A DNA stretch of 64,000 bases from a candidate division WOR-3 bacterium. GTDB taxonomy: Bacteria; Hydrothermota; Tepidihabitantia; SM23-42; JAOAFX01. The DNA is taken from positions 12,977-76,976 of the forward strand of contig JBBINQ010000007.1 in assembly GCA_037443805.1 (NCBI GenBank). Reading direction: 5' to 3'. Below are positions 1,804 to 64,000 of the stretch, piece by piece; the stretch's first letter is position 1; the number at the start of each line of letters is the position of its first letter. The notes under the pieces were generated by a model. That model did not search any database and had not been told where the DNA came from. It saw nothing but the letters and a program-made list of their open reading frames with translations. The position numbers and the translations under genes were made by a program.

Positions 1804-4491
1804 ATGGCATTTTTAGAAAATAAATTAAAGAATATACTCATAGTTGCTGTTTTTTTGGTTGCCGGGGTTGTATATTTATTCACTGTCGCACCAACATTCT
1901 CATTCTGGGATTGTGGAGAATTTGTTGCTTCATCATATACCCTGGCAATTCCCCATCCACCAGGCACACCATTTTATGTTGTGCTGGGCAGGGTCTGGTT
2001 GATAATTATTGGCGTGATTGCAAGTATTTTGCCGATCTCTAAAGAGGTGGGCTGGCAAATGAACCTGCTTGCAATATCTTTTTCACTGGGTTCAATATTT
2101 TTTATTTATAAGATTTTCTTGACAATAATATCATTAAGCAAAAATGGTTTAAATTATAAAGGTATCTGGTCTGGCTTCCTCACAGCCCTGACAATAGCTT
2201 TTTATTTTACAATCTGGCAGAATGCAGTAGAAACAGAGGTCTATGCAGCAGCAAGCTTTATTTTTGTTCTAATAAATTATCTGGTAATTCGCTGGTATGA
2301 GGGGATAAAGAAGAACCAACCAAATAATTTTCTTCTTCTGCTCAGTTTTTATTTAATCTTTCTTGCGACAGGTATTCATCTTGTCCCCTTTTTGATTCTT
2401 ATTCCGATATATATATTTATCTTTGTTGTCAAAAAAGATTTTTTGAAAGACAGACTGTTTGTATTATTTGGTATTTTTCAGATTTGTATTTTTGCCTATA
2501 TGTTCCTGCTACCGGATAATCTCCTTATTATTGCACTGATTGTCCTTGTTTTAATTATTGTTTCAGCAATAATTTTATCATTAAGTGGCTCTGCAACCAG
2601 GAGCGAGCGGATATTTTTCTGGACTGGTATGGCTCTTGTCTTTGTTGGTTTGAGCTCTCAATTATACCTTCCTTTGAGGTCAAGAAGGCTTACCGAGATG
2701 TATCAAGATAAGGTTATAACTGAGCAGTACATTAAAGGAAAGAACATCGCACCGCGGATCAATATGAATGAACCTGGTGAATCAATCGCTTCTTTTTTTG
2801 GTGTGCTCCATCGTTCTCAATATGGTGTGCAGAAGATTATACCGAGACAGACCCAGGCACAGGGTGCAAATTTAGTCCAGGGTGTTTTTTACCAAATTGC
2901 ACTCTATGTCCGTTATCTTTCTCAACAGATTGCACCCGAATATTTAAATGGCTTCTTAAGATTAATTCTTCTTTTAATTTTTTATCTCTTGTTTTTTTAT
3001 GGAATATTTGAATTCTATAAGAGGGAACGCAACTTATTTATTTTACTGATTCTGATTTTGTTTTTTGTTTCAATTGGTGTTGTAGGTTATTTGAACCTGA
3101 AGTTTTCTCCTTCAGACGCTGACCCATCACATCAGCCAAGAGAGGTCAGGGAACGTGATTATTTTTTCCATACAAGTTTTTTATATGCAGGGCTCTTTAT
3201 TTCGTTTGGAATTCTCGGGTTTTTAGACCATATAAAAAAGAGAAGTATTATATCCTTGTGTATTCCAGGTTTGACCATATACTCAATTGTTCCCATATTT
3301 TTTAACTACCCTCTTATCAGCCGTTATAAAAATTTTATTCCCCGCGATTATGGTTATAATCTGTTAATTTCGTGCGTACCAAATGGAATTTTATTTACGA
3401 ATGGTGATAATGATACATTTCCTTTGTGGTATGTTCAGGAAGTGCTAGGTGTGCGTCGGGATGTGATTGTAGCAAATCTTTCGCTGATCAATACTGACTG
3501 GTATATCCGCCATTTGAAATACTGGGGTGTGCCCATAAGTTTTGATACCGCAACAATTAAAAAATTGTGTAATCAGGGTTATTTTGTGACACCTGATAAC
3601 AGGGTTATGCTGGTAAAAGATATAATGATACGCGATATCATCGCGGGTAATGCTGGTAAGAAATTAAGTAGTCAGGACTATTTTATTAAACCTGAAGAGT
3701 TTGCGCAAAAATATCTTAAAAATTATCAAGGTAAGGTTCCATTGTATTTTTCTTCTACTGTAGACTATGAAAATTATAAAGGGTTTGAGTCCTATCTAAA
3801 AATAGAAGGTATAGTGTACCGTGTGACCGGAGACAGCATACCATTTCCAAAACACATTGATATTAAAAGAACCCAGGACTTATTTTACCGTATTTACCGC
3901 TATACTGGATTTTTTTCACCGGATAAATATGATATGCTTTCAAAAATACTTGAGGATTTTGAAAAAAGAAAAAGTGAAGGAGAATTTTTTGGCTTTGAAA
4001 CACTAAAGGATGAGAATACAAGGGGACTTTATTTTAATTACGGTATTGCATTGATCTATCTTGGCTTTCTGCTCAAAAATAATGGAGATTTTGAAGGTGC
4101 CCTGGATGCCTGGCGTTTAGCTCTAATGGTTGAATCTCTGGGTCCTGAGACCTGGAAACTCTATTATAATCTTGGTATGCTTTTTAACCAGTTAAAAATC
4201 CGAGATTCTGCAGTAGAATATTTTAAACGGATAAAGGTCAATGAGCCTCAAATCTATAGTCAGATTGGTGAATCATTCAGGTCTAATGGTGATTATCAAA
4301 GGGCAATAGAGTATTTTCAAGAGGCATTGCGCATAAATCCGCGCAATGCCTCAGGTTATATGGGTCTTATTATTACCTATCTTGATCTTGGCGATACCAG
4401 TTCAGCAAGAAGAATCTTACAGGACTGGTTAAGGTTTAATCCCTATGATACAAATGCCCAGATGTTGTTAGAAGATTTGCAAAGACATTAA
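1804..4491 (+). CDS. Polytopic membrane protein of the DUF2723/TMEM260-like (glycosyltransferase-39-like) family with C-terminal TPR repeats
   Basis: About 12 predicted TM helices. FWDCGEF...IPHPPGTPFY motif characteristic of DUF2723. C-terminal third has TPR-like repeats (AIEYFQEALRINP, GYMGL). Confidence 0.65.
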   Translation: MAFLENKLKNILIVAVFLVAGVVYLFTVAPTFSFWDCGEFVASSYTLAIPHPPGTPFYVVLGRVWLIIIGVIASILPISKEVGWQMNLLAISFSLGSIFFIYKIFLTIISLSKNGLNYKGIWSGFLTALTIAFYFTIWQNAVETEVYAAASFIFVLINYLVIRWYEGIKKNQPNNFLLLLSFYLIFLATGIHLVPFLILIPIYIFIFVVKKDFLKDRLFVLFGIFQICIFAYMFLLPDNLLIIALIVLVLIIVSAIILSLSGSATRSERIFFWTGMALVFVGLSSQLYLPLRSRRLTEMYQDKVITEQYIKGKNIAPRINMNEPGESIASFFGVLHRSQYGVQKIIPRQTQAQGANLVQGVFYQIALYVRYLSQQIAPEYLNGFLRLILLLIFYLLFFYGIFEFYKRERNLFILLILILFFVSIGVVGYLNLKFSPSDADPSHQPREVRERDYFFHTSFLYAGLFISFGILGFLDHIKKRSIISLCIPGLTIYSIVPIFFNYPLISRYKNFIPRDYGYNLLISCVPNGILFTNGDNDTFPLWYVQEVLGVRRDVIVANLSLINTDWYIRHLKYWGVPISFDTATIKKLCNQGYFVTPDNRVMLVKDIMIRDIIAGNAGKKLSSQDYFIKPEEFAQKYLKNYQGKVPLYFSSTVDYENYKGFESYLKIEGIVYRVTGDSIPFPKHIDIKRTQDLFYRIYRYTGFFSPDKYDMLSKILEDFEKRKSEGEFFGFETLKDENTRGLYFNYGIALIYLGFLLKNNGDFEGALDAWRLALMVESLGPETWKLYYNLGMLFNQLKIRDSAVEYFKRIKVNEPQIYSQIGESFRSNGDYQRAIEYFQEALRINPRNASGYMGLIITYLDLGDTSSARRILQDWLRFNPYDTNAQMLLEDLQRH

Positions 4492-5171: not shown

Positions 5172-5199
5172 TTGACAATAAATAAAAATTAGTTATAAT
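5172..5199 (+). promoter_or_regulatory. Sigma-70 type promoter, TTGACA-16-TATAAT, -10 ends 5 nt before ruvX ATG (leaderless or near-leaderless transcript)
   Basis: ttgaca at 5172-5177, tataat at 5194-5199, ATG at 5204/5210. Confidence 0.5.
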
Positions 5200-5203
5200 T
5201 TAA

Positions 5204-5632
5204 ATGATTATGAAGATTATGGCAGTGGATTATGGTAAGATGCGAATCGGCATTGCCCTTACTGACCCACTGGGCGTTATTGCCCAACCATATCTGACCA
5301 TTACTTATAATTCCCGAAAAGACCTTATCAAACGACTTAAGTTTATTAGTGAACAGAATAGCGTTGGACTCATTCTTATTGGTAATCCAGTTTCACTTGA
5401 TGGCAGAACAAATAAAATGTCTGAGGAGATCCACAGATTTGTTAGAGATTTAAAAAAATCATTAAAGATTGAGGTTCAATTATGGGACGAGCGATTTACG
5501 AGCCAGTATGCATTAAAAGTCTTAAAAGACCATGGTATAAAAAAGAAAAATTTAGATGAAATTGCTGCTTCTTTGATGCTTGAGGAATATTTGAGACAGA
5601 CAAAGAATAGACCCGAGCCGATAGAATGTTAA
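5204..5632 (+). CDS. ruvX: Putative pre-16S rRNA nuclease / Holliday-junction resolvase-like YqgF
   Basis: MKIMAVDYGKMRIGIALTD matches the RuvX N-terminus (lGlDlGtkriGvA). About 140 aa. Followed by mltG as in many genomes. Start may be 5210. Confidence 0.8.
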   Translation: MIMKIMAVDYGKMRIGIALTDPLGVIAQPYLTITYNSRKDLIKRLKFISEQNSVGLILIGNPVSLDGRTNKMSEEIHRFVRDLKKSLKIEVQLWDERFTSQYALKVLKDHGIKKKNLDEIAASLMLEEYLRQTKNRPEPIEC

Positions 5633-5636
5633 TTTT

Positions 5637-6605
5637 ATGCGTAAGATTATCTATCTTATAATAATTTTGGGTATCATTTTTTTATGCTGGCTCCAGCCCT
5701 TTAATATCGGAACGAGAGAAGTCAATATCCCGAAAAATGCTTCTGCCCGTGAGATTGCAAATATTTTAGCAAAAGAAAAGGTTGTTCGTGCAACTACTGA
5801 ATTCTTATTCTGGTTGAAGATTTTAGGTAAAGAAGGCTCTATTCGTTCAGGAAGGTTCCGATTACCAATTTACAAAAATCCAGTCTATGTTATTCAAAAA
5901 CTTGTGCAGGGTGGAAGGAGTGATATTACAATAACCATTCCTGAAGGACTTACCTTAAAAGAAATTGCTGAAATTTTGTATGCAAAGAACATAATCAAAG
6001 ACCAGGACAAATTCCTTGAATTGTGTAATAACAGAAATTTTATAAAAAATTTGGGATTGAATGTTCCATCACTGGAAGGTTATCTTTTTCCTGATACTTA
6101 TTCCTTTGATGAAGATGAGGGTGATGTGAAAATTATAACCAAAATGGTGGAAAATTTAAAAATGCAATTAAAAAAAATTACCACAATACCAGTAGATTCT
6201 TTACAAACGATAATAATTATGGCTTCATTGGTGGAAAAAGAGGCACGTCATGATGAAGAACGACCCATTATTGCCCGTGTTTTCTTTAACCGATTAAAAT
6301 TGGGACGGCCACTTGAATCCTGTGCTACAGTGATATACGCCAAAAAATTAAAAGACCCGCATCTTACAATAACCCATCTTCTAAAAAACGACCTGAAAAT
6401 TGATTCTCCCTATAATACATACCTGCACTATGGTTTACCACCTGGTCCAATCTGTTCACCAGGATTGAGTTCAATAAAATCAGCATTATATCCAGCAGAT
6501 GTTGATTATCTTTATTTTGTTTCCCGTGGGAATGGCTATCACTATTTTTCAAAAACCTATAAAGAACACCTTGCTGCCCAGGAGTATTATAATGCTAAGA
6601 AATGA
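5637..6605 (+). CDS. mltG: Endolytic murein transglycosylase MltG (YceG family)
   Basis: N-terminal TM anchor then YceG-like domain. Conserved LPPGPI and YLYFV motifs near the C-terminus. Confidence 0.8.
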   Translation: MRKIIYLIIILGIIFLCWLQPFNIGTREVNIPKNASAREIANILAKEKVVRATTEFLFWLKILGKEGSIRSGRFRLPIYKNPVYVIQKLVQGGRSDITITIPEGLTLKEIAEILYAKNIIKDQDKFLELCNNRNFIKNLGLNVPSLEGYLFPDTYSFDEDEGDVKIITKMVENLKMQLKKITTIPVDSLQTIIIMASLVEKEARHDEERPIIARVFFNRLKLGRPLESCATVIYAKKLKDPHLTITHLLKNDLKIDSPYNTYLHYGLPPGPICSPGLSSIKSALYPADVDYLYFVSRGNGYHYFSKTYKEHLAAQEYYNAKK

Positions 6606-9012
6606 ATTTGAAGAGATCTTAATTACCCAGTCACCATATTATCAGAAACTCAATAAAATTTATCGCGATTCATTAAATTTTCAGCGTTATCTCACGGTGC
6701 TGAAAAAGATTTCTAATAATGACCCAATCCTGAAACATTTTGAAGAAAAAGAGGGGAAAGAACTTGTCTTTTTAGGGAGAAAGCTCTTCAGTCTCCAGGA
6801 AGAATTTGTATCAAATTATTTAAATTTTCTTAAAGATGAATCAATGATCAGTAAATGGGATGAGTTTTTTGAACGCTATAGTAACACACTTTTTGAAATT
6901 TACAAAAGATTTACCCAAGCTGATGTTTTTAAAATTTTTATTTTTGAGATAGTAAATCGCAAACTATTAAGAGATATTCTTACAAAAGAGGTTGCCCATA
7001 GAACGATTGATGAAAAGGCATTGATTGCAGAGAGATTCGGAGTCGTGATCAACCAATTGTTCAATTATATAAGGCGTTCCCTTACCAGGAATGTGATGGT
7101 GCAAGACCGTCTGATTGTTGATTCTTATGAAAAAATTCCTTTATTCCCCAAAGTAATACGAACAGAAATTACGAAAATGATGGCAAAGATGATTTTACAG
7201 GAAGGTCTGCCCGAACCTTTATTTTCTGCTATTTTAAAACTTCTTTTAAATACCACTTACACCGAAGGGTTGCAGAATCTTATTGATAATATTAAATCAC
7301 TTGGTAAATCATTCAATCGGGAAAAAGTTATGGAGGTAATGCGTAGTCAATTTTTCTTTCCTGATGAAGAAGGCGTACTACAGGTTTTCACTGTTATTCA
7401 AAATGCTGCGCGTGGATTATGTGCTGAAATAAAAAAGAGAAAAGAGGTGTTAGAAAACCAATTAAATCAAATTGAGAATAAAATTATTGAAACCAATCGT
7501 AGTCTGGGTGAGGAGATGGTCAAAATAACCCGCGATTTTTCAACTGAGGAGGCATTGGATATTCAGATAAAAAAATTACGGCGTAACTTAATATCGTTTG
7601 GCTATGATATGAGAAAATTGCGCACTGAATATCAGGAATGCCAAAGGCAGGAAAGTGAAATGGAAGGCATATTGAAATTGAAGCCTGCAGATTTTTTAAA
7701 ATTTATCGTGAAAAATGAATGGGACCCATATCTTCTGTTCCTGATTGGTGAGAAAAAAACAATAGAAGAAGAGACATTTCAGAACCTCGTCAAGGATGTG
7801 ATCAATGAAATAAAGGGTAATAAAGAATTTATTAATAAACTCAATGACCTGCGCATCCCTGGTTTTTTAAAAGAGCGCTATAATACTACTGAAATAATGA
7901 ACAGATTTGAGAATATTGTGAAAAATATTTTTGAACCATTTTTAAAATCAGTTCTTTTAGAAGAGATGGTTGATTATTATCCTAAAGTTACCGGGACGCC
8001 AGCACCTGAAAATATACGCTATATTGCTGAAGAATCAATGAATGGCAGGGTATCAATGGTGGAGAAGGATATCAGTTCTATTACCAAGATTGAAACGCCT
8101 TCAGGATTAAATATTCAGCGATATAAAAATTTAATTTCAGTTCTGACCTATGATATAAGAGGTTCTACCCTGATGGGAACAAAATTACAGAATGCCGCAA
8201 AGGAAAATGAAATAAGAAATCTTTTTCAGGAAAGCATGCTGACCGTTATTGAAAAATTCGGAGGTCTGCCGATAAAAGATACCGGTGATGGCGGGATTAT
8301 TCTTTTTGCCAGCAATAATTATGAATTGAAGAATCAGAAGACCAAAATACCCGCGGCCGGTAGCACCCTTAATGCGGTACGCTGCGGTCTGGAAATGGTG
8401 CGGGAGTCAATCAATTTTGTCCAGGAGAATATTGAGCATTATAAAGATTGGTTTAAAGAAGCCGAGGATAGAAAGATAAATTTTGAGGGGATAACCTATG
8501 CTACTTTGCCCCCCTTGTATCAATCTATATTTCAGATTGGCGTGGGGATTGCATCGGGTGAGTATCCGAGGGAGGTCTATTTAGACCGCAATGCCTTTGG
8601 TGATTTTGATCTCACAGGAATGCTCGTGCGGGAATCAAATTTTTATTCAAAGATAAAAAGCAAAGACAAATCTACTGTAATCTGCGATGATGCCACCATT
8701 TTTAATCTTCTCTTAAATGTTGAGAAATTTTCTTTCTTTGGTGAAACTGGAGTGAAACTTACTGCAGAATCAATGGATATAGAACAGGAACTGGAATACT
8801 GGATTAATCAGAAGATTACACGCCGCGGTTTTATTCTTGACCTCTACAAAATTTTTGCTACAAAGATGGGCGAAGAAATATATCATCCCGGAAGTTTGAA
8901 AATTCTTCTCGGGGTCTTTGATATTACCATAGACGAGACCGGTGAAATAAAAGATGGAAAAGGTGGTCGGGGTAAATTTTTATTTGAACTTTCCTATGAG
9001 GTGCCCAAATGA
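6592..9012 (+). CDS. Large cytoplasmic protein with an about 520 aa helical N-terminal region and a C-terminal class III nucleotidyl-cyclase homology (CHD-like) domain (paralog A)
   Basis: The C-terminal 250 aa follow the CHD pattern. VLTYDIRGST is the counterpart of FaDivGFT, with the first metal Asp. FGGLPIKDTGDGGIILFA is the counterpart of hGGtvdKfiGDavmavFG, with the second metal Asp. IGVGIASGEY...GDFDLTGMLVRES is the counterpart of riGihtGpv..GDtVNlAsRles. STVICDDATIFNLL...FSFFGETGVKLTAES is the counterpart of ilvSeatyelL..f.feelgevelKGk. Start moved to ATG 6592 (MLRNEF), which overlaps the mltG stop by 14 nt. Confidence 0.6.
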   Translation: MLRNEFEEILITQSPYYQKLNKIYRDSLNFQRYLTVLKKISNNDPILKHFEEKEGKELVFLGRKLFSLQEEFVSNYLNFLKDESMISKWDEFFERYSNTLFEIYKRFTQADVFKIFIFEIVNRKLLRDILTKEVAHRTIDEKALIAERFGVVINQLFNYIRRSLTRNVMVQDRLIVDSYEKIPLFPKVIRTEITKMMAKMILQEGLPEPLFSAILKLLLNTTYTEGLQNLIDNIKSLGKSFNREKVMEVMRSQFFFPDEEGVLQVFTVIQNAARGLCAEIKKRKEVLENQLNQIENKIIETNRSLGEEMVKITRDFSTEEALDIQIKKLRRNLISFGYDMRKLRTEYQECQRQESEMEGILKLKPADFLKFIVKNEWDPYLLFLIGEKKTIEEETFQNLVKDVINEIKGNKEFINKLNDLRIPGFLKERYNTTEIMNRFENIVKNIFEPFLKSVLLEEMVDYYPKVTGTPAPENIRYIAEESMNGRVSMVEKDISSITKIETPSGLNIQRYKNLISVLTYDIRGSTLMGTKLQNAAKENEIRNLFQESMLTVIEKFGGLPIKDTGDGGIILFASNNYELKNQKTKIPAAGSTLNAVRCGLEMVRESINFVQENIEHYKDWFKEAEDRKINFEGITYATLPPLYQSIFQIGVGIASGEYPREVYLDRNAFGDFDLTGMLVRESNFYSKIKSKDKSTVICDDATIFNLLLNVEKFSFFGETGVKLTAESMDIEQELEYWINQKITRRGFILDLYKIFATKMGEEIYHPGSLKILLGVFDITIDETGEIKDGKGGRGKFLFELSYEVPK

Positions 9013-11279
9013 ATAAAATTAACATTGTAGATTTGCACAAGATAATTGAAGAACAGACGCAATATCTGGATTTTTTAAAAGAACGATACATTGAGTCAGT
9101 GCGTTTTCAGAAAACAATTGCGGATATAAAAGAAGGACTGGCAATATTAAACTGCCCGTCCGAGATAATCAAAAAATTTGAGGAACTGAAGATCTTTTTC
9201 ATCTGGTTGGGTAGCCCAATTACCCAATATAAAGATTATGAATGGGCACTGTATATTGGCCATAAAAAGATGGGATTGCCCATACCCGCAGGTCTAAAAG
9301 AAAAATGTCCCGAATGTATAATTGCGCTGATTGATAATCTGAAACCATACAAGGCAATCTTTGAATTTAATCAAGAATTAAGAAATTATTCATTGTCCAG
9401 CGATATCTTTTTATTAATTCACCAGTCATTTATCAACGCCCGCGTGGAAAACATCTTACCCAGTTTTCTTGTAGATATTGAGCGAATGACATTCAAAAAC
9501 AATACTGAAGCAATGGAAAAGATACCTTCTGTCTATTTTGACTACCTGTCAGAACCCTCTTTATTAAAGATTTTGAAAAAGATTGGAACGATGCTACAGC
9601 GTGATAAAGAGAGAATCACTGAAGAATTGCGGAGCATTGATTTGTATTCAATGCGATTAAAAGAACAGCTTACGGCACTGTATATGGAAACGAACGCCGG
9701 GCTAAAGGATATTCTTGATAACTTAGTAGCCAAAGGCGCAGATATTGAATTAATAACCCAGAAAACTTCAAATCTTTTTTCCCGCCTGGAAAGATTGTTT
9801 CTTGGTAATGTTTATCATCTTAAGGAATATGACCAGCGGCGCGATGAATTGCAAAAATTTCTAAAAGAAGAAGAAGAGTTGAAACTGTTAGTAGAGAATA
9901 GGAGGCTGGATAAGAAAAAGCCGATCAGCGAATTATTCAGAGAAATTTCATTCTGTTATAAATATGGAGATTTAACACCTCAGGAAGAGAAACTATTTGC
10001 AAAAAATATAATGAGTAATTTTGAGGAATTACATAAGCAGAAACACCGAGACCTGCCACTAATCGCAAAATTTGAAAGAAAAGCCTTGTTGGGCGTTGAC
10101 CTTGATATAAATGCAGTAAAAGAAGCCTATCTTTCATTTATAAAAAAAGAATTGATACCGACCCATATGGGTAATTGTCTATATGATATTGTCAATTGTT
10201 TACCTCCAGGTAGTAAAGAATCTAAGAAAGTGATAAAGGACATCGCCAACTTTACATATTTTCAACTTGAAGGAAAAGAGATTTTGAATGTGCGAAAGAA
10301 GAGTACACCCCTGTCCGATGAATTGCAGAAATTCCTTGAGCAGTACCGAAAGACGATTACTGTGCTGGTCTATGATATTCGTGGTTCCTCATATATGGGT
10401 ATTAAATTGCATAATGCATTAAAAGAACAGCGTATAAAATATAAATTTGCCAAAGAAATGGCAACCATCGGTAAAAATTACGGAGGTTTTTTACTAAAAG
10501 ACACTGGTGACGGAGGTATAATCTGGTTTGCTGATAATTCACAGAGTTTATATAACCACCTTTATACAGAATCTACTACAGGTAAAGGAGTTAATTTGCG
10601 TTATTCAATATTTTCTGGCGCAGAATTAGAATTGATACCGGCTGGAGATGCCGCAAAAAGAGCGATCCAGTGTGCAAGGGATATGGTGATTAAGGCAGAG
10701 GAATTCATTCGTGCAAATTTTGTGCATTATCGCGATTGGTTCGCATCGGTTGCGGAAAGGACAATGGAAGTTGATGGTGTCACCTATGCCCTTTTGCCGC
10801 CTGAATTTAAAACGCTCTTTAGAATTGGTGTGGGTATTGCCTCGGGAATACCAGAAAGGGATGTGGTACTGTCAGCAAATTCTTTTGGTGACCCGGATCT
10901 AGTAGGCCCAATCCTTGCTGATGCACATCTTTATTCTATGGAACGCCAGCCCGGGCGTTCTGTAGTAATCTGTGATTTACCTACATTTATCAATTTTATG
11001 CTGAACACAGAAAATTTTGAATTTCCTATTGATGAATCAGTTTTTGAGAAATATTTAAGGATTCTGGATGATGTTCGCAAACTACCCCATGGGTATCTGT
11101 ATCCAGAGCTGAAGATTTCTATAGCACTCAGGGGATTGCATATTCTTGAGGAACTTGATAAGAAGAGGGCATTATCTGAAATGAAATCGGGTAATTTGCT
11201 GATTGATGAACTCGGCAACATCTATAACGAAGATAAGAAAAAGGCAAAACCCTTCTATGAAATCATACCGATACAATGA
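9009..11279 (+). CDS. Large cytoplasmic protein with an about 440 aa helical N-terminal region and a C-terminal CHD-like nucleotidyl-cyclase homology domain (paralog B, probably catalytically degenerate)
   Basis: VLVYDIRGSS, GGFLLKDTGDGGIIWFA, IGVGIASGIPE...GDPDLVGPILADAH and SVVICDLPTFINFML are collinear with paralog A. The Arg of the VNxAxR element is absent. ATGA overlap with the upstream and downstream genes. Confidence 0.6.
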   Translation: MNKINIVDLHKIIEEQTQYLDFLKERYIESVRFQKTIADIKEGLAILNCPSEIIKKFEELKIFFIWLGSPITQYKDYEWALYIGHKKMGLPIPAGLKEKCPECIIALIDNLKPYKAIFEFNQELRNYSLSSDIFLLIHQSFINARVENILPSFLVDIERMTFKNNTEAMEKIPSVYFDYLSEPSLLKILKKIGTMLQRDKERITEELRSIDLYSMRLKEQLTALYMETNAGLKDILDNLVAKGADIELITQKTSNLFSRLERLFLGNVYHLKEYDQRRDELQKFLKEEEELKLLVENRRLDKKKPISELFREISFCYKYGDLTPQEEKLFAKNIMSNFEELHKQKHRDLPLIAKFERKALLGVDLDINAVKEAYLSFIKKELIPTHMGNCLYDIVNCLPPGSKESKKVIKDIANFTYFQLEGKEILNVRKKSTPLSDELQKFLEQYRKTITVLVYDIRGSSYMGIKLHNALKEQRIKYKFAKEMATIGKNYGGFLLKDTGDGGIIWFADNSQSLYNHLYTESTTGKGVNLRYSIFSGAELELIPAGDAAKRAIQCARDMVIKAEEFIRANFVHYRDWFASVAERTMEVDGVTYALLPPEFKTLFRIGVGIASGIPERDVVLSANSFGDPDLVGPILADAHLYSMERQPGRSVVICDLPTFINFMLNTENFEFPIDESVFEKYLRILDDVRKLPHGYLYPELKISIALRGLHILEELDKKRALSEMKSGNLLIDELGNIYNEDKKKAKPFYEIIPIQ

Positions 11280-12667
11280 AAGTTCTACTTTATCATCCTG
11301 TTTCCAAGCATAAAAATCGTTTAATTGATTATTTAAAGAAATTGAATCTTGAAGTTTTTACGGTATTAAAATCTTCTGCAATAGTGCCAGCAATCAAAAG
11401 ACAAAATATTGATATTATAATAATTCACTTTGATGCAGATAAAGCAATTGCAAACATTGAGAAATCAAAATTTGCGATACCTGTTATCCTCATCGCCTCT
11501 GCCCAGGATAAGATTAATTATGAGAGATTGATTATTCCTGATACGGTCGGTATTATTAGACCACCGTATACATTATCTAATTTAAAGAAAGTTATACAAA
11601 AGGCAATTAAGAAGCGCGAAGAGAATATTTTTAATTTGAAAACAGTTGAGTCGTTAAAAAGAAAAGTAAAAGAAATGGAGACCCTTAATGAGATTGTCAG
11701 GGCAATAAATTCTTCCTTGCGGCCCAAGGAGATTTTAAAAATTATTATGGAGAAGACTGCTGATTTTGTCAAAGCAGAAGGTTGGTCTATCCTTCTGCTT
11801 GATAAAGAGAAACAAGAATTGGTATTTGAGGCGGCGGCTGGTGAGGCGGGTCAGAAATTGATCGGGATTAGATTAAAAATCAATCAGGGGGTTGCGGGTT
11901 GGGTTGCACGCACTGGCAAGCCCTTAATTGTTGAAGATGTGACAAAAGACCCGAGGTTTTATGATGGGGTTGATAAAAAGACAAAATTTATAACAAAGTC
12001 TATTCTCTGTGTACCAATGAAAAGTGGCAATGAAATCCTTGGTGTGGTTGAAGTTGTCAATAAAGTTGGAGGCGAACCATTTACCAAAGATGATTTAGAG
12101 ATCTTTGAAAATCTGGTTCAGCACATAACCATTGCCCTGCGCAATGCCCAGCTCTATAATAAAATGGAAGAGACGAGCATTACCGATGATTTAACAAAAT
12201 TATATAATACACGTTACTGCAATCACATTCTTGATGAATTTATTAGAGAAAGGCTCGCTACCCGGGCAAAGATTTCATTGATATTCTTTGATGTGGACTT
12301 TTTTAAACTGGTTGATGATAATTATGGGCATCTGGTTGGAAGTGAGACCCTGCGCTTGATTGGTGAAAGGGCAAAGGCAGTGATCAGGGATAAAGATATT
12401 GCGGTGCGCTATGGTGGAGATGAGTATATAATTGTCTTGCCGGATACGGACAAACCTACTGCCGCAGTTATTGCTGAAAGGATAAGAAAAGCGATTGAAG
12501 AAAAACCATTTCCTGCACAGGATGGCAAAAGTTTCAATGTAACAGTTACCCTTGGCGTTGCTACCTTTCCTGAAGATGCACTTTCGCGTGATGATTTGAT
12601 TGGTCGCGCAGATAAGGCAATGTACGAAGGTAAGATGACGGGTCGGAACAGGGTCGTTGTTGTCTGA
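11276..12667 (+). CDS. Diguanylate cyclase with an N-terminal REC-like (probable pseudo-receiver) domain, a GAF domain and a C-terminal GGDEF domain (GGDEY variant, I-site RxxD present)
   Basis: REC-like N-terminus lacks the acidic pocket (KVLLYHPVSKH; IIIIHFDAD). GAF region has ...VAGWVARTGKPLIVEDV.... GGDEF region has DDLTKLYNTRY...RDKDIAVRYGGDEYIIVLPDT. Confidence 0.8.
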   Translation: MKVLLYHPVSKHKNRLIDYLKKLNLEVFTVLKSSAIVPAIKRQNIDIIIIHFDADKAIANIEKSKFAIPVILIASAQDKINYERLIIPDTVGIIRPPYTLSNLKKVIQKAIKKREENIFNLKTVESLKRKVKEMETLNEIVRAINSSLRPKEILKIIMEKTADFVKAEGWSILLLDKEKQELVFEAAAGEAGQKLIGIRLKINQGVAGWVARTGKPLIVEDVTKDPRFYDGVDKKTKFITKSILCVPMKSGNEILGVVEVVNKVGGEPFTKDDLEIFENLVQHITIALRNAQLYNKMEETSITDDLTKLYNTRYCNHILDEFIRERLATRAKISLIFFDVDFFKLVDDNYGHLVGSETLRLIGERAKAVIRDKDIAVRYGGDEYIIVLPDTDKPTAAVIAERIRKAIEEKPFPAQDGKSFNVTVTLGVATFPEDALSRDDLIGRADKAMYEGKMTGRNRVVVV

Positions 12668-15570: not shown

Positions 15571-16203
15571 ATGATTGAAGGAATGGAAAAGACCTTGAAC
15601 CCTGGTGAAATGCTTTTCAATGAAGGGGATAAGGGTGATGTAATGTACTTAATCAAAGAAGGACAGATTAAGATAACCAAAGGTAAAGGACCTGATGAGA
15701 AAGTGCTGGCAGTTTTGAAAGAGGGCGATTTTTTTGGCGAAATGGCAATCATTGATGGTTCACCCCGTTCTGCAACTGCTACCGCAATTTCAAAAACCTC
15801 TTTATTGATTATAGATAAAGAGACTTTCAAATCCAAGATTCGGGAGAATCCGCTCATTGAATATATCCTTGAGACCCTTACCAAAAGGCTGCGCAATGCA
15901 GATGAGCAGATAAAACTTTTAACGATCAAAAGTGAAGAAAGGCGTGTGGTTGCTTATATAATTACTAAAGCAAAGGAGATCGGTAAGAGCACGGCTGAAG
16001 GTATTGAAATTACCCCTTTTTCTTTTGAGAGTATGGCGGTTACCACAGGCATTGAGTTGAGTAAAGTAAAGGATTATGTTGATAAATTATGCCAGGTTAA
16101 ACTCGTGGGTTTGAAAAACAATAGTCTTGTTATAAAAGGGATCGAAGACCTTGATGATTATCTGCGTTATATTGCCCTCAAAGAGAAATTTGAAAAACTA
16201 TAA
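15571..16203 (+). CDS. Crp/Fnr-family transcriptional regulator (cNMP-binding domain plus C-terminal HTH)
   Basis: cNMP-binding signature GDFFGEMAIIDGSPRSATA. C-terminal region (RVVAYII...ESMAVTTGIELSKVKDYVDKLCQVKLV) fits a Crp-type HTH. SD aaaggagg upstream. Confidence 0.75.
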   Translation: MIEGMEKTLNPGEMLFNEGDKGDVMYLIKEGQIKITKGKGPDEKVLAVLKEGDFFGEMAIIDGSPRSATATAISKTSLLIIDKETFKSKIRENPLIEYILETLTKRLRNADEQIKLLTIKSEERRVVAYIITKAKEIGKSTAEGIEITPFSFESMAVTTGIELSKVKDYVDKLCQVKLVGLKNNSLVIKGIEDLDDYLRYIALKEKFEKL

Positions 16204-61151: not shown

Positions 61152-61179
61152 TTGACGCAGAAATTTTCCTGAATATAAT
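61152..61179 (+). promoter_or_regulatory. Sigma-70 type promoter TTGACG-16-TATAAT ending 6 nt before the ATG of the GGDEF-STAND gene (leaderless)
   Basis: ttgacg at 61152-61157, tataat at 61174-61179, ATG at 61186. Confidence 0.5.
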
Positions 61180-61185
61180 TTAATA

Positions 61186-64000
61186 ATGAAGCGAGAAGAG
61201 ATTTACTATGATGAGTTGACCGGAATTTATAACCGGCGATTTTTACACTACTGGATGGACAATGAAATCAAGAGGGCGAATCGTTTTGCGACAAAATTTG
61301 GAATTATTATGATTGACCTTGATAATTTCCGTGAGGTCAATAACAATTATGGTCATCTTGAAGGTGATAGGGTGTTAATTGAATTTAGCAAATTCCTGAA
61401 AAATAACATAAGGGAAGTAGATAATCTTGTGCGCTATGGTGGTGATGAGTTTATTATCCTTGTTCCCAATACTGATACCTCAGGAGTTTTAGAACTTGCG
61501 CAGAGGATTCTCTCCAATTTAAATAAGAGTTCTATTACTGGTTATAAAATTTTCTGTAGTATTGGTTTTGCGGTCTATCCTGATGATGGCGCCAATCTTG
61601 AGACTTTAATAAATCAGGCAGACCGATTAATGTATCAGGCAAAGAAAGATGGCAAAAATCGTATTGGGTTAAAAGCTGAAGTTATCAGGAAATTAGAGAT
61701 TCCGGTAAAAGTGCTCGTAGGCAGAGAACAAGAACTTGGACAATGTCTGCGTCAATTAAAAGAATATAATACACTTTTTATCAGTGGCGAAGCAGGTGTG
61801 GGTAAGACCAGGCTTGCCCTGGAAATAAAAAATCTATTTCCTGACTGTGTGTATTTAAGGGCAAACTCCTATGCCGCATTGACAACAGTTCCATACCATC
61901 CCTTCCATAATATGTTCAAGGAGATTGTTATGCAGGATTTTGTTCTTACCCAGCGGGTATTAAAACAGATGCCGGAGATTATGCGCCTTGAAATAATGAA
62001 ATTATTACCGGAAGATAAAATCGTTCCTGCAAAAATTGAAGGGCTTGATAAATTCCGTCTTTTTGAAAGTGTCAATATGTTTTTTAATATACTCACTGAA
62101 TTATCATTACCGGGCCAGATTATTCTTCTTATGGATGATCTACACTGGACCGACCGTTCAAGCTGTGAATTATTGGACTTTGTAATAAGAAGTGCCTCCA
62201 CCAATTTTAAAATTCTGGGCACATATCGCACTGAAGAGATAAAAAATGCATCAATCTTTGAATTTTTAGGAATATGGGCAAGGGAAAATTTATATTCAAA
62301 ACTTGAATTATTGCCTTTAAGTGAATCCCAGACCTTTAAATTTCTTGAATTGGTAATGGGCAGTGTTTCTCAAGCTACGGCAAAATTTATTTATAACCTG
62401 AGCGGTGGCAATCCATTCTATACCGAAGAGATACTTCGTGAACTGGAGAGGCAGAACAAGATTTTTTATAATGGTAAAGAATGGGTTATTCTTATAGAAC
62501 GGGAATTAAAAATTCCTTCAAGCATTGAATCAACAATACACCGTAAAATAGAGTTTCTTGATACTGAAACAAAAGAAATTTTAAATATCGCGGCAGTCTA
62601 TGGTCAGGAGTTCAGCGATGAAATACTTGCCCTTTGCGCACAGAAAAATGTTGGTGAAATAATGGATGCCATTGACCATTTAATTAAACTGGGTTTTATT
62701 AAGGTAAGGGGAAGCGAACTCTTCTTTTTCAGTGAGGATATTGTTAGACAAATAGTCTATAAAAATATCAATCGGGCAGATTTGCTGAAATATCACCGGC
62801 AGGTAGGAGATACAATTGAAAAATATTTTCATAGTAGTCTTCTCATTTATTATGAGCAACTTGCCCATCATTTTACCATTGCCAATGACCCAGCAAGGGC
62901 ACTTTATTATTCGCGGAGGGCAGGGATAAAATGTATGGAAAATTATGCACATGAGCAGGCAGTAGGATTTTTTACAAATGCCCTGAAGTTTGAAGATAAC
63001 ATTGAAGAGATATTTAAGATAAAATCTGACCTTTCTGAAATCTATTTTTTGATGGGAAAGAGTGATAAGGCAATAGATAATCTTAATGCCTGTTTAAAAA
63101 TAAATCCTCAGGACTATAAAATTTACTACAAGCTTGGTCAGATCAATGAAAATATTGGTGATTACAAAAAGGCACTGGGCTATTTTAAACAGGGTCTGAA
63201 AATAACTGCGCAATCCAGTTCATCCTATCAATTCAGGGCCGGTATAGTCTGGATTTACACAAGAATGGGACAGTATCTCAAGGCAAAAAAGGAGTGCGAA
63301 CAACTATTAAAAAAGGAAAAACAGATACCAAAACAGGAACTTGCTATTATTCTGATCACTTATGGAGTTGTTTTATTACACCTTGGTGACCTTGAAGGGT
63401 CAATTTCATATTTTAAAAAGGCACTGGATATTCGTCAGAAATTGGGCGACAAAAAAGGAATGGCTGCCTGCTATCTGGATATGGCGGTCGTTTACCAACA
63501 GCAACTGAATTTTTCTATCAGTGAAGAATACTATAAAAATGCACTTAAACTCTATGAAGAGATTGGCTATCAAGCAGGTATTATGATTACGCTTTTAGAT
63601 CTGGGCTCACTCTATTTTCATTACAACTTAATTAAGGCTGAAGAATATTGTAATAAAGGGCTGAGAATTGCAAAATTAACTGGAGCAAAGCGTGACATTG
63701 TTTTCCTTTATGATAATCTCGGGTCAATAAGTCTTCGTCGCTTAATGCTTGATGAGGCTTTAAGCAGTTTTAAAAGAGCACTCCAATATGCTGAGGAAAC
63801 AGATTTTACTGAGGGTAAGAATTTTATTAATATTCACTTAAGTGAATATTATCGGGAAACCGGTAAGAAAAAGAAAGGTTTTGTTCATTTAAAAAAGGCA
63901 TATATATATGCAAAGAAATTGAATTTAAAACAATTTATTTATGATTGTCAATTTGAAGAGATTGAGTATTTGCTCCTGAATAAGAACTTTAAAAAGGCAA
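61186..64000 (+). CDS. Multidomain signalling protein with N-terminal GGDEF diguanylate cyclase, STAND/AAA_16 P-loop NTPase and C-terminal TPR repeats (3' partial, runs off the window; absent from the ORF track because it has no stop)
   Basis: Hand translation from ATG 61186 is open to the window end. GGDEF with I-site (REVDNLVRYGGDEFIIL). Walker A LFISGEAGVGKTRLA. Walker B-like IILLMDDLHWTD. At least 8 TPR-like repeats after about residue 560. Confidence 0.75.
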   Translation, partial: MKREEIYYDELTGIYNRRFLHYWMDNEIKRANRFATKFGIIMIDLDNFREVNNNYGHLEGDRVLIEFSKFLKNNIREVDNLVRYGGDEFIILVPNTDTSGVLELAQRILSNLNKSSITGYKIFCSIGFAVYPDDGANLETLINQADRLMYQAKKDGKNRIGLKAEVIRKLEIPVKVLVGREQELGQCLRQLKEYNTLFISGEAGVGKTRLALEIKNLFPDCVYLRANSYAALTTVPYHPFHNMFKEIVMQDFVLTQRVLKQMPEIMRLEIMKLLPEDKIVPAKIEGLDKFRLFESVNMFFNILTELSLPGQIILLMDDLHWTDRSSCELLDFVIRSASTNFKILGTYRTEEIKNASIFEFLGIWARENLYSKLELLPLSESQTFKFLELVMGSVSQATAKFIYNLSGGNPFYTEEILRELERQNKIFYNGKEWVILIERELKIPSSIESTIHRKIEFLDTETKEILNIAAVYGQEFSDEILALCAQKNVGEIMDAIDHLIKLGFIKVRGSELFFFSEDIVRQIVYKNINRADLLKYHRQVGDTIEKYFHSSLLIYYEQLAHHFTIANDPARALYYSRRAGIKCMENYAHEQAVGFFTNALKFEDNIEEIFKIKSDLSEIYFLMGKSDKAIDNLNACLKINPQDYKIYYKLGQINENIGDYKKALGYFKQGLKITAQSSSSYQFRAGIVWIYTRMGQYLKAKKECEQLLKKEKQIPKQELAIILITYGVVLLHLGDLEGSISYFKKALDIRQKLGDKKGMAACYLDMAVVYQQQLNFSISEEYYKNALKLYEEIGYQAGIMITLLDLGSLYFHYNLIKAEEYCNKGLRIAKLTGAKRDIVFLYDNLGSISLRRLMLDEALSSFKRALQYAEETDFTEGKNFINIHLSEYYRETGKKKKGFVHLKKAYIYAKKLNLKQFIYDCQFEEIEYLLLNKNFKKA

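Follow-up and report, generated by a model that had tools for sequence, protein, structure and literature searches.

Two diverged class III cyclase homologues and a GAF-GGDEF diguanylate cyclase in a conserved WOR-3 operon: a candidate relay from a cyclic nucleotide to c-di-GMP

In a WOR-3 bacterium, two large adjacent genes with cyclase-like C-termini (A and B) are directly followed by a diguanylate cyclase gene (C), and this arrangement raises the question of whether one nucleotide signal is turned into another within a single operon. The window (the whole stretch of DNA that was analyzed, 64,000 nt) contained the following features at this locus:

5172..5199, + strand: promoter-like site before ruvX, a perfect TTGACA-16-TATAAT (consensus match only)
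5204..5632, + strand: ruvX, YqgF-type Holliday junction resolvase-like (Pfam RuvX, 5e-34)
5637..6605, + strand: mltG (YceG family), with an N-terminal membrane anchor (Pfam YceG, 1e-82)
6592..9012, + strand: gene A, 806 aa, soluble protein with a divergent class III cyclase-homology domain
9009..11279, + strand: gene B, 756 aa, paralogue of A
11276..12667, + strand: gene C, 463 aa, diguanylate cyclase with pseudo-receiver, GAF and GGDEF domains

The first-pass annotation of this DNA had described two adjacent large genes of 806 and 756 aa, ATGA coupling from A through B to C, and an overlap between gene A and mltG. The open reading frames and their junctions were confirmed from the coordinates. 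The final 14 nt of mltG overlap the start of gene A, which is the ATG at 6592 with an AGGAG 7 nt 5' of it, and both the A/B and the B/C junctions are ATGA overlaps. The membrane anchor of MltG has a Kyte-Doolittle 19-residue maximum of 2.48 at residue 4. Judging by its match to the consensus, the promoter-like site is likely the start of a ruvX-mltG-A-B-C transcription unit; no terminator-like site was found on the + strand between 7111 and 12667. A search of the whole window against Rfam returned one tRNA and nothing else, with no riboswitch or leader RNA ahead of the operon. The order ruvX-mltG-A-B-GGDEF was found again in ~38 independent WOR-3 loci (ruvX synteny in ~35). A and B are joined by an ATGA in 30 of 38 loci, and ~28 of 40 conserve the 14 nt that mltG and A have in common. 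Because it recurs in so many loci with its overlaps kept, the arrangement is not due to chance. The locus also occupies a fixed position, downstream of ruvX and mltG, both housekeeping genes, and upstream of the rpsP-trmD-rplS operon. A cNMP_binding protein is encoded 3 kb downstream and was counted in favour of the reading that is preferred below.

The C-terminal domains of A and B were related to class III cyclases by remote homology. The PF00211 search that the first-pass annotation had proposed matched neither A nor B nor any of the 84 relatives (41 + 43) at E<=1. Pfam and NCBIfam returned nothing useful for A and B, and Pfam returned scattered coiled-coil noise for the 84 relatives. A profile of the family matched class III cyclases only in the PDB (CyaB at 2.3e-5, Cya2 at 0.004), and 8 of the 10 weak matches of this profile in a library of 1.84e9 proteins were bona fide PF00211 proteins by a Pfam check. 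Alignment of the family with bona fide PF00211 domains by hhalign gave an E-value of 7e-21 and a probability of 99.3-99.7% with the whole domain covered, and an ad hoc HMM made from 8 PF00211 domains matched A at 7e-18 and B at 3e-16. When the structure models were searched with Foldseek, the best 50 matches of each protein were all class III cyclases (E ~1e-5), and the order of secondary-structure elements fits the class III fold. The models are of low confidence in the latter half of each cyclase domain, where alpha4 and the insertion lie. The motif blocks traced earlier were located in both proteins: YDIRGS[TS] at A520/B455, KDTGDGG at A562/B497, IGVGIASG at A649/B606 and VICD at A696/B653. 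The PDB profile, the reverse matches from PF00211, hhalign and Foldseek thus bear out the class III (CHD) homology suggested for both C-termini, and the predicted fold of A and of B is that of a class III cyclase and not an unrelated one. Sequence and model comparisons together support the C-terminal domains of A and B as strongly diverged homologues of class III (CHD-type) nucleotidyl cyclases. Some databases already annotate members of the family as 'class 3 adenylate cyclase' or 'Guanylate cyclase domain-containing protein'.

Both proteins could be divided into three regions:

6592..8112, + strand: gene A N-terminal region, residues 1-507, all-helical (AF2 model, invariant columns)
8113..8739, + strand: gene A cyclase-homology domain, residues ~508-716
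8740..9009, + strand: gene A C-terminal tail, residues 717-806, conserved, common to B, low model confidence
9009..10334, + strand: gene B N-terminal helical region, residues 1-442
10335..11027, + strand: gene B cyclase-homology domain, residues ~443-673
11028..11276, + strand: gene B C-terminal tail, residues 674-756, small and beta-rich, a homologue of the A tail

A and B were 40% identical across ~250 C-terminal residues (E 3e-55). Their profile-profile alignment was collinear from A184/B107 to both C-termini (606 columns, E 3e-64), with a score dominated by the cyclase domain, and the tail of ~85-90 aa is also common to both. A and B are probably products of the duplication of one ancestral gene, a reading supported by the single-copy forms described below. 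The long N-termini had been called helical and unrelated; the structure models agreed with the first of these terms, whereas the collinearity from A184/B107 contradicted the second. The N-terminal region of A contained a long antiparallel coiled-coil hairpin in the AF2 model (helices 259-314 and 319-361) and many invariant aromatic or charged positions in residues 60-180, and Pfam found no known domain in it. B contained a coiled-coil hairpin as well (helices 197-240 and 246-296). Residues 138-223 of B showed a weak GapR/UPF0335-like similarity (PDB profile E 1e-4; GapR in NCBIfam at 0.006, with 16.7 bits against a cut-off of 140), and Pfam matched PF10073 (GapR/UPF0335) in one of the 84 A/B family members. 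Within the cyclase domain, A carries a family-specific insertion at ~610-645 with the pattern 'N..HY.DWF..AE.R...FEG.TYA.LPP', which B shares at ~567-600, and B has a loop of its own at 515-546. In the models, pLDDT was <40 for residues 621-640 of A and ~49-79 for residues 570-650 of B.

Gene C encodes a protein with the following domains:

11276..11620, + strand: receiver-like N-terminus
11723..12145, + strand: GAF domain of the cyclic-nucleotide-binding kind (PDB profile matches)
12179..12652, + strand: GGDEF domain (PF00990 at 2.8e-40, full length)

The earlier reading of this gene as a REC-like/GAF/GGDEF protein was upheld by the GAF (2e-19) and GGDEF (3e-40) matches and by the receiver-like N-terminus. 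The receiver lacks the acidic pocket and the phospho-acceptor Asp ('YHP' and 'IIIIH' in C), many orthologues retain 'YD.D' and 'LILD' in this domain, and Pfam Response_reg matches in the orthologues were faint or weak. No PF00027 cNMP-binding domain was found in C by Pfam, and the sensor is the GAF domain. Its best PDB match was the GAF structure of Lcd1 (5W10; PMC11800159) at 1.3e-29, with PDE5 at 1e-28, PDE2A at 1e-23 and CyaB2 at 4e-23, whereas GAF domains that do not bind cNMPs scored 1e-9 or worse; the E-values of the two groups lie 14-20 orders of magnitude apart. Lcd1 of Leptospira interrogans is a cAMP-activated diguanylate cyclase (PMC8846402). The suggestion that the operon is a second-messenger module was strengthened by this finding, namely that the GAF of C is of the cNMP-binding kind and closest to the cAMP-binding GAF of Lcd1. 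The active-site motif of the GGDEF domain is GGDEY (residue 380), with the final Phe changed to Tyr, and 50 of 57 orthologues share this form. Five residues ahead of GGDEY there is an RxxD I-site, RDKD (residue 371), and RxxD is present in 41 of the 57. GGDEY is an unusual motif and was counted against the reading that is preferred below.

The A/B family is small, with ~41 clusters at 50% identity, and is limited to WOR-3, TA06, Edwardsbacteria and UBP2-type MAGs. The A+B pair belongs to the main WOR-3 clade, whereas Edwardsbacteria, UBP2 and others have a single gene of this family. A cyclase-like gene adjoins a diguanylate cyclase gene in 55 loci. The single-copy genes are also followed by a GAF-GGDEF partner of the same kind (E 1e-37 to 1e-55), and the pairing of a cyclase-like gene with a GAF-GGDEF gene is older than the A/B duplication. 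Inheritance is vertical and lineage-wide, and protein lengths are constant. Literature searches found nothing on WOR-3 and adenylate cyclase, and no paper describing the A/B family.

Whether A and B could synthesize a cyclic nucleotide depends on their active sites. The metal-binding Asp residues are D521 and D566 in A and D456 and D501 in B, aligned with those of CyaB and Cya2. The base-specifying pair is K562/D673 in A and K497/D630 in B, in which the Lys was aligned by HMMER and the Asp was assigned from a remote alignment by hhalign. D521/D456, K562/K497, D566/D501 and D673/D630 are invariant in 41 (A) and 43 (B) sequences, and the Asp/Lys/Asp set is retained in nearly all of ~39 family representatives, down to ~35% identity. 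The canonical transition-state Asn on alpha4 (G-x-x-V-N) is absent, with R680 in its place in A and A637, an Ala conserved in B. The canonical transition-state Arg, four residues past the Asn, is absent as well (F684 in A, L641 in B), and this position is hydrophobic across the whole family. Certain single-copy relatives retain the canonical 'G..VN.A' Asn. The phosphate-binding Arg before the base-specifying Asp aligns to Gly, in a loop of uncertain alignment, and the insertion has its own invariant residues (N613/N570, Y, W and R627/R584 in A/B). Both the Asn and the Arg are important for catalysis in canonical class III enzymes, and because they are missing, catalysis by A and B stays a prediction.

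This loss of the Asn and Arg from the WOR-3 pair, and of the Arg family-wide, might mean that A and B are pseudo-cyclases, which would bind metal-ATP or metal-GTP at the Asp/Lys/Asp site without cyclizing it and would sense the nucleotide, or act as scaffolds, to regulate C or MltG by protein contacts. The failure of every family member to match PF00211 agrees with such a role, and the large coiled-coil regions of both proteins would suit scaffolding. However, pseudoenzymes usually lose the metal- or base-specifying residues, which are here invariant throughout the family, some relatives keep the canonical Asn, and a partner with a cNMP-binding-type GAF needs a cNMP source. We consider the pseudo-cyclase explanation unlikely, although it is the most probable of the alternatives.

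The operon, to judge from the domains it encodes, probably passes one nucleotide signal on into another. The reading preferred here, which is held tentatively and at somewhat less than even confidence, is that a heterodimeric, non-canonical adenylyl-type cyclase A:B feeds the cNMP-activated diguanylate cyclase C. A and B would most likely form a head-to-tail heterodimer in the cytoplasm, and their large helical N-terminal regions would sense the signal. Protein C, co-translated with them, would read the cyclic nucleotide through its Lcd1-like GAF, and occupancy of the GAF would switch on the GGDEY diguanylate cyclase domain, so that the signal would end in c-di-GMP. The predicted product of A:B is cAMP, because the Lys/Asp pair that is adenine-specifying in canonical enzymes is kept in both proteins. 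A different active cyclase, or a transferase, that makes cGMP, a pyrimidine cNMP or another product by means of the altered alpha4 and the insertion is improbable. The non-canonical catalytic constellation with its invariant insertion residues would be consistent with such a product, as would a weak PADLOC PycC match to A (E 1e-4) and the nearly equal scores of the gene C GAF against the cGMP-binding GAFs of PDE5 and PDE2. The GTP-specifying pair of class III cyclases is of the Glu/Cys type. Lys-Asp, on the other hand, is the ATP-specifying pair, and the roles of both metal Asp residues are likewise defined (PMC4886424); furthermore, Lcd1, which has the closest GAF, binds cAMP.

Within the Asp pair, the Lys/Asp pair and the residue at the Asn position of alpha4, A and B differ only in the last (Arg vs. 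Ala). Since a polar alpha4 residue is present only in A (R680), the better-equipped site would combine D456/D501 of B with K562/D673/R680 of A, and the second A:B site would be impaired or regulatory. A complementary loss of the AC C1/C2 or sGC kind is absent, as neither A nor B has lost its Asp pair or its Lys/Asp pair. The presence of both Asp residues in both subunits, unlike the decay in mammalian AC and sGC, counts against a heterodimer. A and B could instead be separate homodimers, that is, two independently regulated enzymes that the operon merely co-expresses. Homodimers are the typical form of class III cyclases in prokaryotes (PMC4886424), the single-copy relatives must work as such, and each protein has a full Asp/Lys/Asp set. 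However, neither A nor B occurs without the other, their order is constant and their junction is mostly an ATGA (~38 loci), and the loss of the polar alpha4 residue in B alone, with its conserved Ala, fits a reliance on A, which makes two separate homodimers quite improbable. A Pycsar- or CBASS-like anti-phage signalling system is hardly credible, for the weak PADLOC PycC matches concerned A only (E 1e-4 and 9e-4) with none for B or C, the genes are inherited vertically throughout the lineage and the lengths of their proteins do not vary, and a Pycsar or defence identity was rejected on the fixed housekeeping context (ruvX and mltG before, rpsP-trmD-rplS after) and the lack of an effector gene.

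The heterodimer reading can be taken further, into a more speculative version to which we give little credence. A:B would then be an obligate heterodimer in which the Arg at the alpha4 Asn position, together with insertion residues such as R627/R584, would constitute a new catalytic set and subclass. Its synthesis would be tied to the peptidoglycan enzyme MltG via the 14-nt overlap, and a cue from cell-wall growth or the envelope, read by the helical N-termini, would be converted to cAMP and through C to c-di-GMP.

If A and B are active, they would represent a cyclase subfamily that is invisible to PF00211 and lacks both textbook transition-state residues, and the definition of class III would be widened; cNMP signalling may then be under-annotated in uncultured FCB-related candidate phyla. 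If the preferred reading of a heterodimer acting on C is true, the operon would also provide a rare bacterial two-gene cyclase and a hard-wired cAMP-to-c-di-GMP relay kept since before the gene duplication. The hypothesis is directly testable because the parts are soluble and could be expressed in E. coli.

A and B resemble CyaB of P. aeruginosa (3R5G), CyaC of Spirulina (1WC1), Cya2 (2W01), Rv1900c (1YBT) and Ma1120 (4WP3) in motif order, metal Asp residues and the Lys/Asp pair. They differ from canonical class III cyclases in that 'FxDIxGFT' is changed to 'YDIRGS[ST]', an invariant insertion of ~30 aa precedes beta4 (B having an extra loop), and a new helical N-terminal region of ~440-500 aa and a conserved tail of ~85-90 aa are added. 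In mammalian AC C1/C2 and sGC alpha/beta, two paralogous cyclase domains are likewise made together, with a polar alpha4 residue in one only. In these enzymes the residues are divided, with the metal Asp in one subunit and the base-specifying and transition-state residues in its partner, whereas A and B are separate bacterial genes that both have the metal Asp and Lys/Asp residues, and their heterodimer is predicted. Bacterial class III cyclase-like proteins that are known by remote homology only and have conserved metal Asp residues have been described as DUF2652 (Ramakrishnan et al., 2016; PMC4886424). A and B are class III cyclase-like in the same sense and also keep the metal Asp, but they belong to a different family with no Pfam DUF2652 match; DUF2652 proteins are small and come from Actinobacteria, Bacteroidetes and Proteobacteria.

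The logic of a cyclase that feeds a cNMP-activated diguanylate cyclase is already known from XC_0250/XC_0249 and Lcd1. In Xanthomonas campestris, the class III guanylyl cyclase XC_0250 adjoins XC_0249, a cNMP-activated protein with a cNMP domain and a GGDEF domain (PMC3770947). The WOR-3 operon has the same placement of a cyclase gene beside a sensor-bearing diguanylate cyclase and, by prediction, the same cNMP-to-c-di-GMP logic, but its sensor is a GAF rather than PF00027, its predicted nucleotide is cAMP rather than cGMP, and its cyclase is a pair of very divergent proteins of 750-800 aa. What is new here is the closeness of the gene C GAF to the cAMP-binding GAF of Lcd1 and a pairing older than the A/B duplication. 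Gene C shares the GAF-GGDEF order of Lcd1, whose GAF is its closest solved relative over the full domain, and it differs from Lcd1 in its pseudo-receiver N-terminus, in GGDEY, and in its position directly after the presumed cyclase genes.

The cyclase-like pair, genes A and B, stood with the diguanylate cyclase gene C in a tightly packed run of ORF calls with ruvX and mltG on the plus strand of the window:

5172-5199, + strand: sigma-70 consensus TTGACA-16-TATAAT (perfect, 12/12) before ruvX
5204-5632, + strand: ruvX, 142 aa
5637-6605, + strand: mltG (YceG), 322 aa
6592-9012, + strand: gene A, 806 aa
9009-11279, + strand: gene B, 756 aa
11276-12667, + strand: gene C, 463 aa
12679-12706, + strand: sigma-70 consensus TTGACA-16-TATAAT (perfect, 12/12) before rpsP (start 12712)

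The ATG of gene A at 6592 followed an AGGAG motif located 7 nt upstream and lay inside mltG by 14 nt, confirming the overlap noticed in the first-pass annotation, and the ATGA overlaps that it reported at the A/B and B/C junctions were found at 9009 and 11276. Given the two consensus promoters and the gene junctions, the transcription unit would most simply be ruvX-mltG-A-B-C, followed by a separate rpsP-KH-trmD-rplS operon. The second promoter-like site ends 6 nt ahead of rpsP, and the first ends 5 nt ahead of the ruvX ORF start, which, if the promoter is used, implies a leaderless mRNA or a later ruvX start codon. Hydropathy analysis detected no hydrophobic segment in A, B, or C, which are predicted to be soluble, and MltG carried its usual N-terminal membrane anchor. 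The sole Rfam match over the window was one tRNA, located elsewhere than the operon. The window also encoded an 895-aa multi-pass membrane protein (1804-4491, + strand), whose N-terminal domain is TMEM260-like (O-mannosyltransferase-like; 4e-31) and whose C-terminal part carries TPR repeats.

The search with PF00211 (Guanylate_cyc) proposed in the first-pass annotation failed, as neither A, B, nor any of 84 aligned relatives was matched, even at E<=1. When all PDB sequences were searched with a 224-position domain profile, the top matches were exclusively class III cyclases, led by CyaB (2.3e-5), Cya2 (0.004), and a Cya2-derived chimera (0.005), with Ma1120, Rv1900c, and a Pycsar cyclase below them. 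Among 1.84 billion representative proteins, the same profile recovered 41 family clusters at E<1e-30 and, after a clean gap, weak matches at 1e-6 to 1e-3, of which eight of the ten tested with Pfam were bona fide PF00211 proteins. Alignment of the family with these PF00211 domains by hhalign spanned the whole domain (probability 99.3-99.7%, E 7e-21), the independent part being the extension into the second half, because the PF00211 sequences had been chosen for their matches to the first half of the domain profile. The class III cyclase fold and homology that the earlier annotation had claimed for both C-terminal domains are therefore established, its four motif blocks are present in both A and B, and the assignment of the cyclase-homology domain is close to certain.

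BLASTP aligned A with B over the C-terminal part only (approximately 250 residues, 40% identity, E 3e-55). In profile-profile alignment, the A-type (41 sequences) and B-type (43 sequences) families were collinear from A184/B107 to the C-termini (606 columns, E 3e-64), with the cyclase domain dominating the score. The predicted secondary structures were also parallel, consisting of a long antiparallel coiled-coil hairpin, a helix-strand-helix-strand unit, the cyclase-like domain, and a small tail, with approximately 80 extra residues at the start of A. The N-terminal regions, previously described as unrelated, are therefore related but diverged.

Class III cyclases act as dimers, with two metal-binding Asp residues contributed by one subunit and the transition-state Asn and Arg, together with the pair of residues that specifies the base (Lys/Asp for ATP), by the other (PMC4886424). 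The corresponding positions were as follows:

Metal Asp 1: A D521, B D456; invariant
Metal Asp 2: A D566, B D501; invariant
Base-specifying Lys: A K562, B K497; invariant
Base-specifying Asp: A D673, B D630; invariant
Transition-state Asn (G+4 on alpha4): A R680, B A637; replaced
Transition-state Arg (G+8 on alpha4): A F684, B L641; replaced

The first four residues were invariant in the A-type and B-type sets and kept in nearly all representatives. The canonical alpha4 motif G-x-x-V-N-x-A-x-R corresponds to G676-M-L-V-R680-E-A-N-F684 in A and to G633-P-I-L-A637-D-A-H-L641 in B, with a hydrophobic residue at G+8 in both. Single-copy relatives carried Arg or the canonical Asn at G+4 (G..VN.A in the representative proteins P0244, P0246, P0229, P0255-P0258, P0261, and P0263), and Arg at G+8 occurred in no single-copy relative examined. 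The family also shared an invariant insertion of approximately 30 aa ahead of beta4 (N..HY.DWF..ER...G.TYA.LPP), and B alone had an additional, poorly modelled loop (515-546). Model confidence was low for the second half of the cyclase domain in the predicted structures of A and B. By fold, profile homology, metal Asp residues, and base-specifying pair, A and B belong to the class III superfamily; as they score below threshold with PF00211 and have neither transition-state residue, they are filed as a divergent subfamily rather than as ordinary members. The invariance of metal and base-contact residues across so much divergence indicates a site in use, which may cyclise.

A and B each had more than 100 relatives of near-constant length (805-806 and 754-756 aa), with identities as low as approximately 48%, and those with names came almost entirely from candidate division WOR-3. 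Most were labelled hypothetical, with a few "class 3 adenylate cyclase" (JGI) or "Guanylate cyclase domain-containing protein" (UniRef). Across one genome per species (185,579 species), relatives were encoded on 93 stretches from WOR-3 (including Stahlbacteria), TA06, Edwardsbacteria, UBP2, and some MAGs labelled Cloacimonadota, the closest (JBBILZ010000003.1) sharing 95.7% DNA identity with the window. An ORF scan of 86 fetched loci revealed three arrangements. The main WOR-3 clade showed ruvX-mltG-A-B-GGDEF (approximately 38 loci), and other loci had only one copy, either of 840-1000 aa and upstream of a GGDEF gene (approximately 13 loci) or by itself (approximately 25 loci); called genes with precomputed Pfam hits gave the same three-way picture. 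The A/B junction was ATGA in 30/38 loci, and the start codon lay 14 nt ahead of the mltG end in approximately 28/40. Pairs in the main clade vs. single-copy forms elsewhere indicate that an older single gene was duplicated within WOR-3 to give the A/B pair. The mltG linkage is specific to the WOR-3 lineage. In two complete WOR-3 chromosomes (CP070795.1 and CP070705.1), the ORF scan found B only as a 398-399 aa fragment. Pseudogenisation, a frameshift, or masking of the sequence could account for this; a genuine truncation would mean that some lineages can do without B.

Pfam assigned GAF (2e-19) and GGDEF (3e-40) domains to gene C, which, with a receiver-like N-terminus, agrees with the architecture first annotated. 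The catalytic motif was GGDEY instead of GGDEF/GGEEF (50/57 orthologues, loci L008-L061), with an RxxD I-site five residues upstream (41/57). The acidic pocket and acceptor Asp of the receiver were lost in the window copy and retained in many orthologues, which suggests a shift within WOR-3 from phosphorylation-dependent to phosphorylation-independent control. In PDB, the GAF domain best matched 5W10 over its full length (E 1.3e-29), followed by PDE5 (1e-28), PDE2A (1e-23), CyaB2 (4e-23), PDE6, and PDE10; GAFs for other ligands (PtsP, NLH1, and DevS) scored 1e-9 or worse. The 5W10 domain comes from Leptospira Lcd1 (PMC11800159), in which cAMP binding to this GAF activates the diguanylate cyclase (PMC8846402). 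GGDEF genes that follow single-copy relatives encoded the same GAF (E 1e-37 to 1e-55), so a cyclase-like protein was already paired with an Lcd1-like diguanylate cyclase before the A/B duplication, and this pairing forms the conserved core of the module. Two further proteins were observed:

15571-16203, + strand: CRP/FNR-like protein, 210 aa (Pfam cNMP_binding 5e-24)
61156-63999, + strand, running past the window end: large protein with N-terminal GGDEF (1e-44), AAA_16/STAND-type NTPase, and many TPR repeats

The phosphate-binding cassette of the former is of textbook form (FGEMA...PRSATA), and the protein is a second candidate cNMP receptor in this organism; its gene lies 3 kb downstream of the operon and is not syntenic in a complete WOR-3 genome locus (L002). 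The domain order of the latter is unusual for a diguanylate cyclase.

We infer that A and B would form a head-to-tail heterodimer that catalyses, as the Lys/Asp pair predicts, the conversion of ATP to cAMP, and that cAMP would bind the gene C GAF and turn on c-di-GMP synthesis, with product feedback through the I-site. The better-equipped site would combine B (D456 and D501) with A (K562, D673, and R680), since the residue at G+4 of alpha4 has remained polar only in A; the reciprocal site may be weaker or regulatory. Input would be received by the helical N-terminal regions, and perhaps also by the tails. This whole chain is tentative, with a little less than an even chance. The absent transition-state Asn and Arg would also fit pseudo-cyclases that bind nucleotide and regulate gene C or MltG, but this is somewhat unlikely, given that the metal and base positions are invariant and that the partner requires a cNMP. 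An active enzyme with a product other than the cAMP predicted from the Lys/Asp pair is distinctly unlikely, and two independent homodimers in place of the heterodimer are less probable still. A defence system, hardly credible, was ruled out by gene context.

The signalling logic is already known. The proposed link from cAMP to a diguanylate cyclase is that of Lcd1, and the adjacent Xanthomonas genes XC_0250/XC_0249 follow the same logic with cGMP and a cNMP-domain-GGDEF protein (PMC3770947). A and B do not show the complementary decay that characterises AC C1/C2 and sGC. Their family is distinct from the DUF2652 cyclase-like proteins reported in 2016 (PMC4886424), and a literature search found no paper describing it. 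The protein family, its two-gene form, the altered catalytic helix, and the N-terminal module are new; for a cyclic-nucleotide specialist, they represent a useful, testable extension of these systems rather than a surprise.
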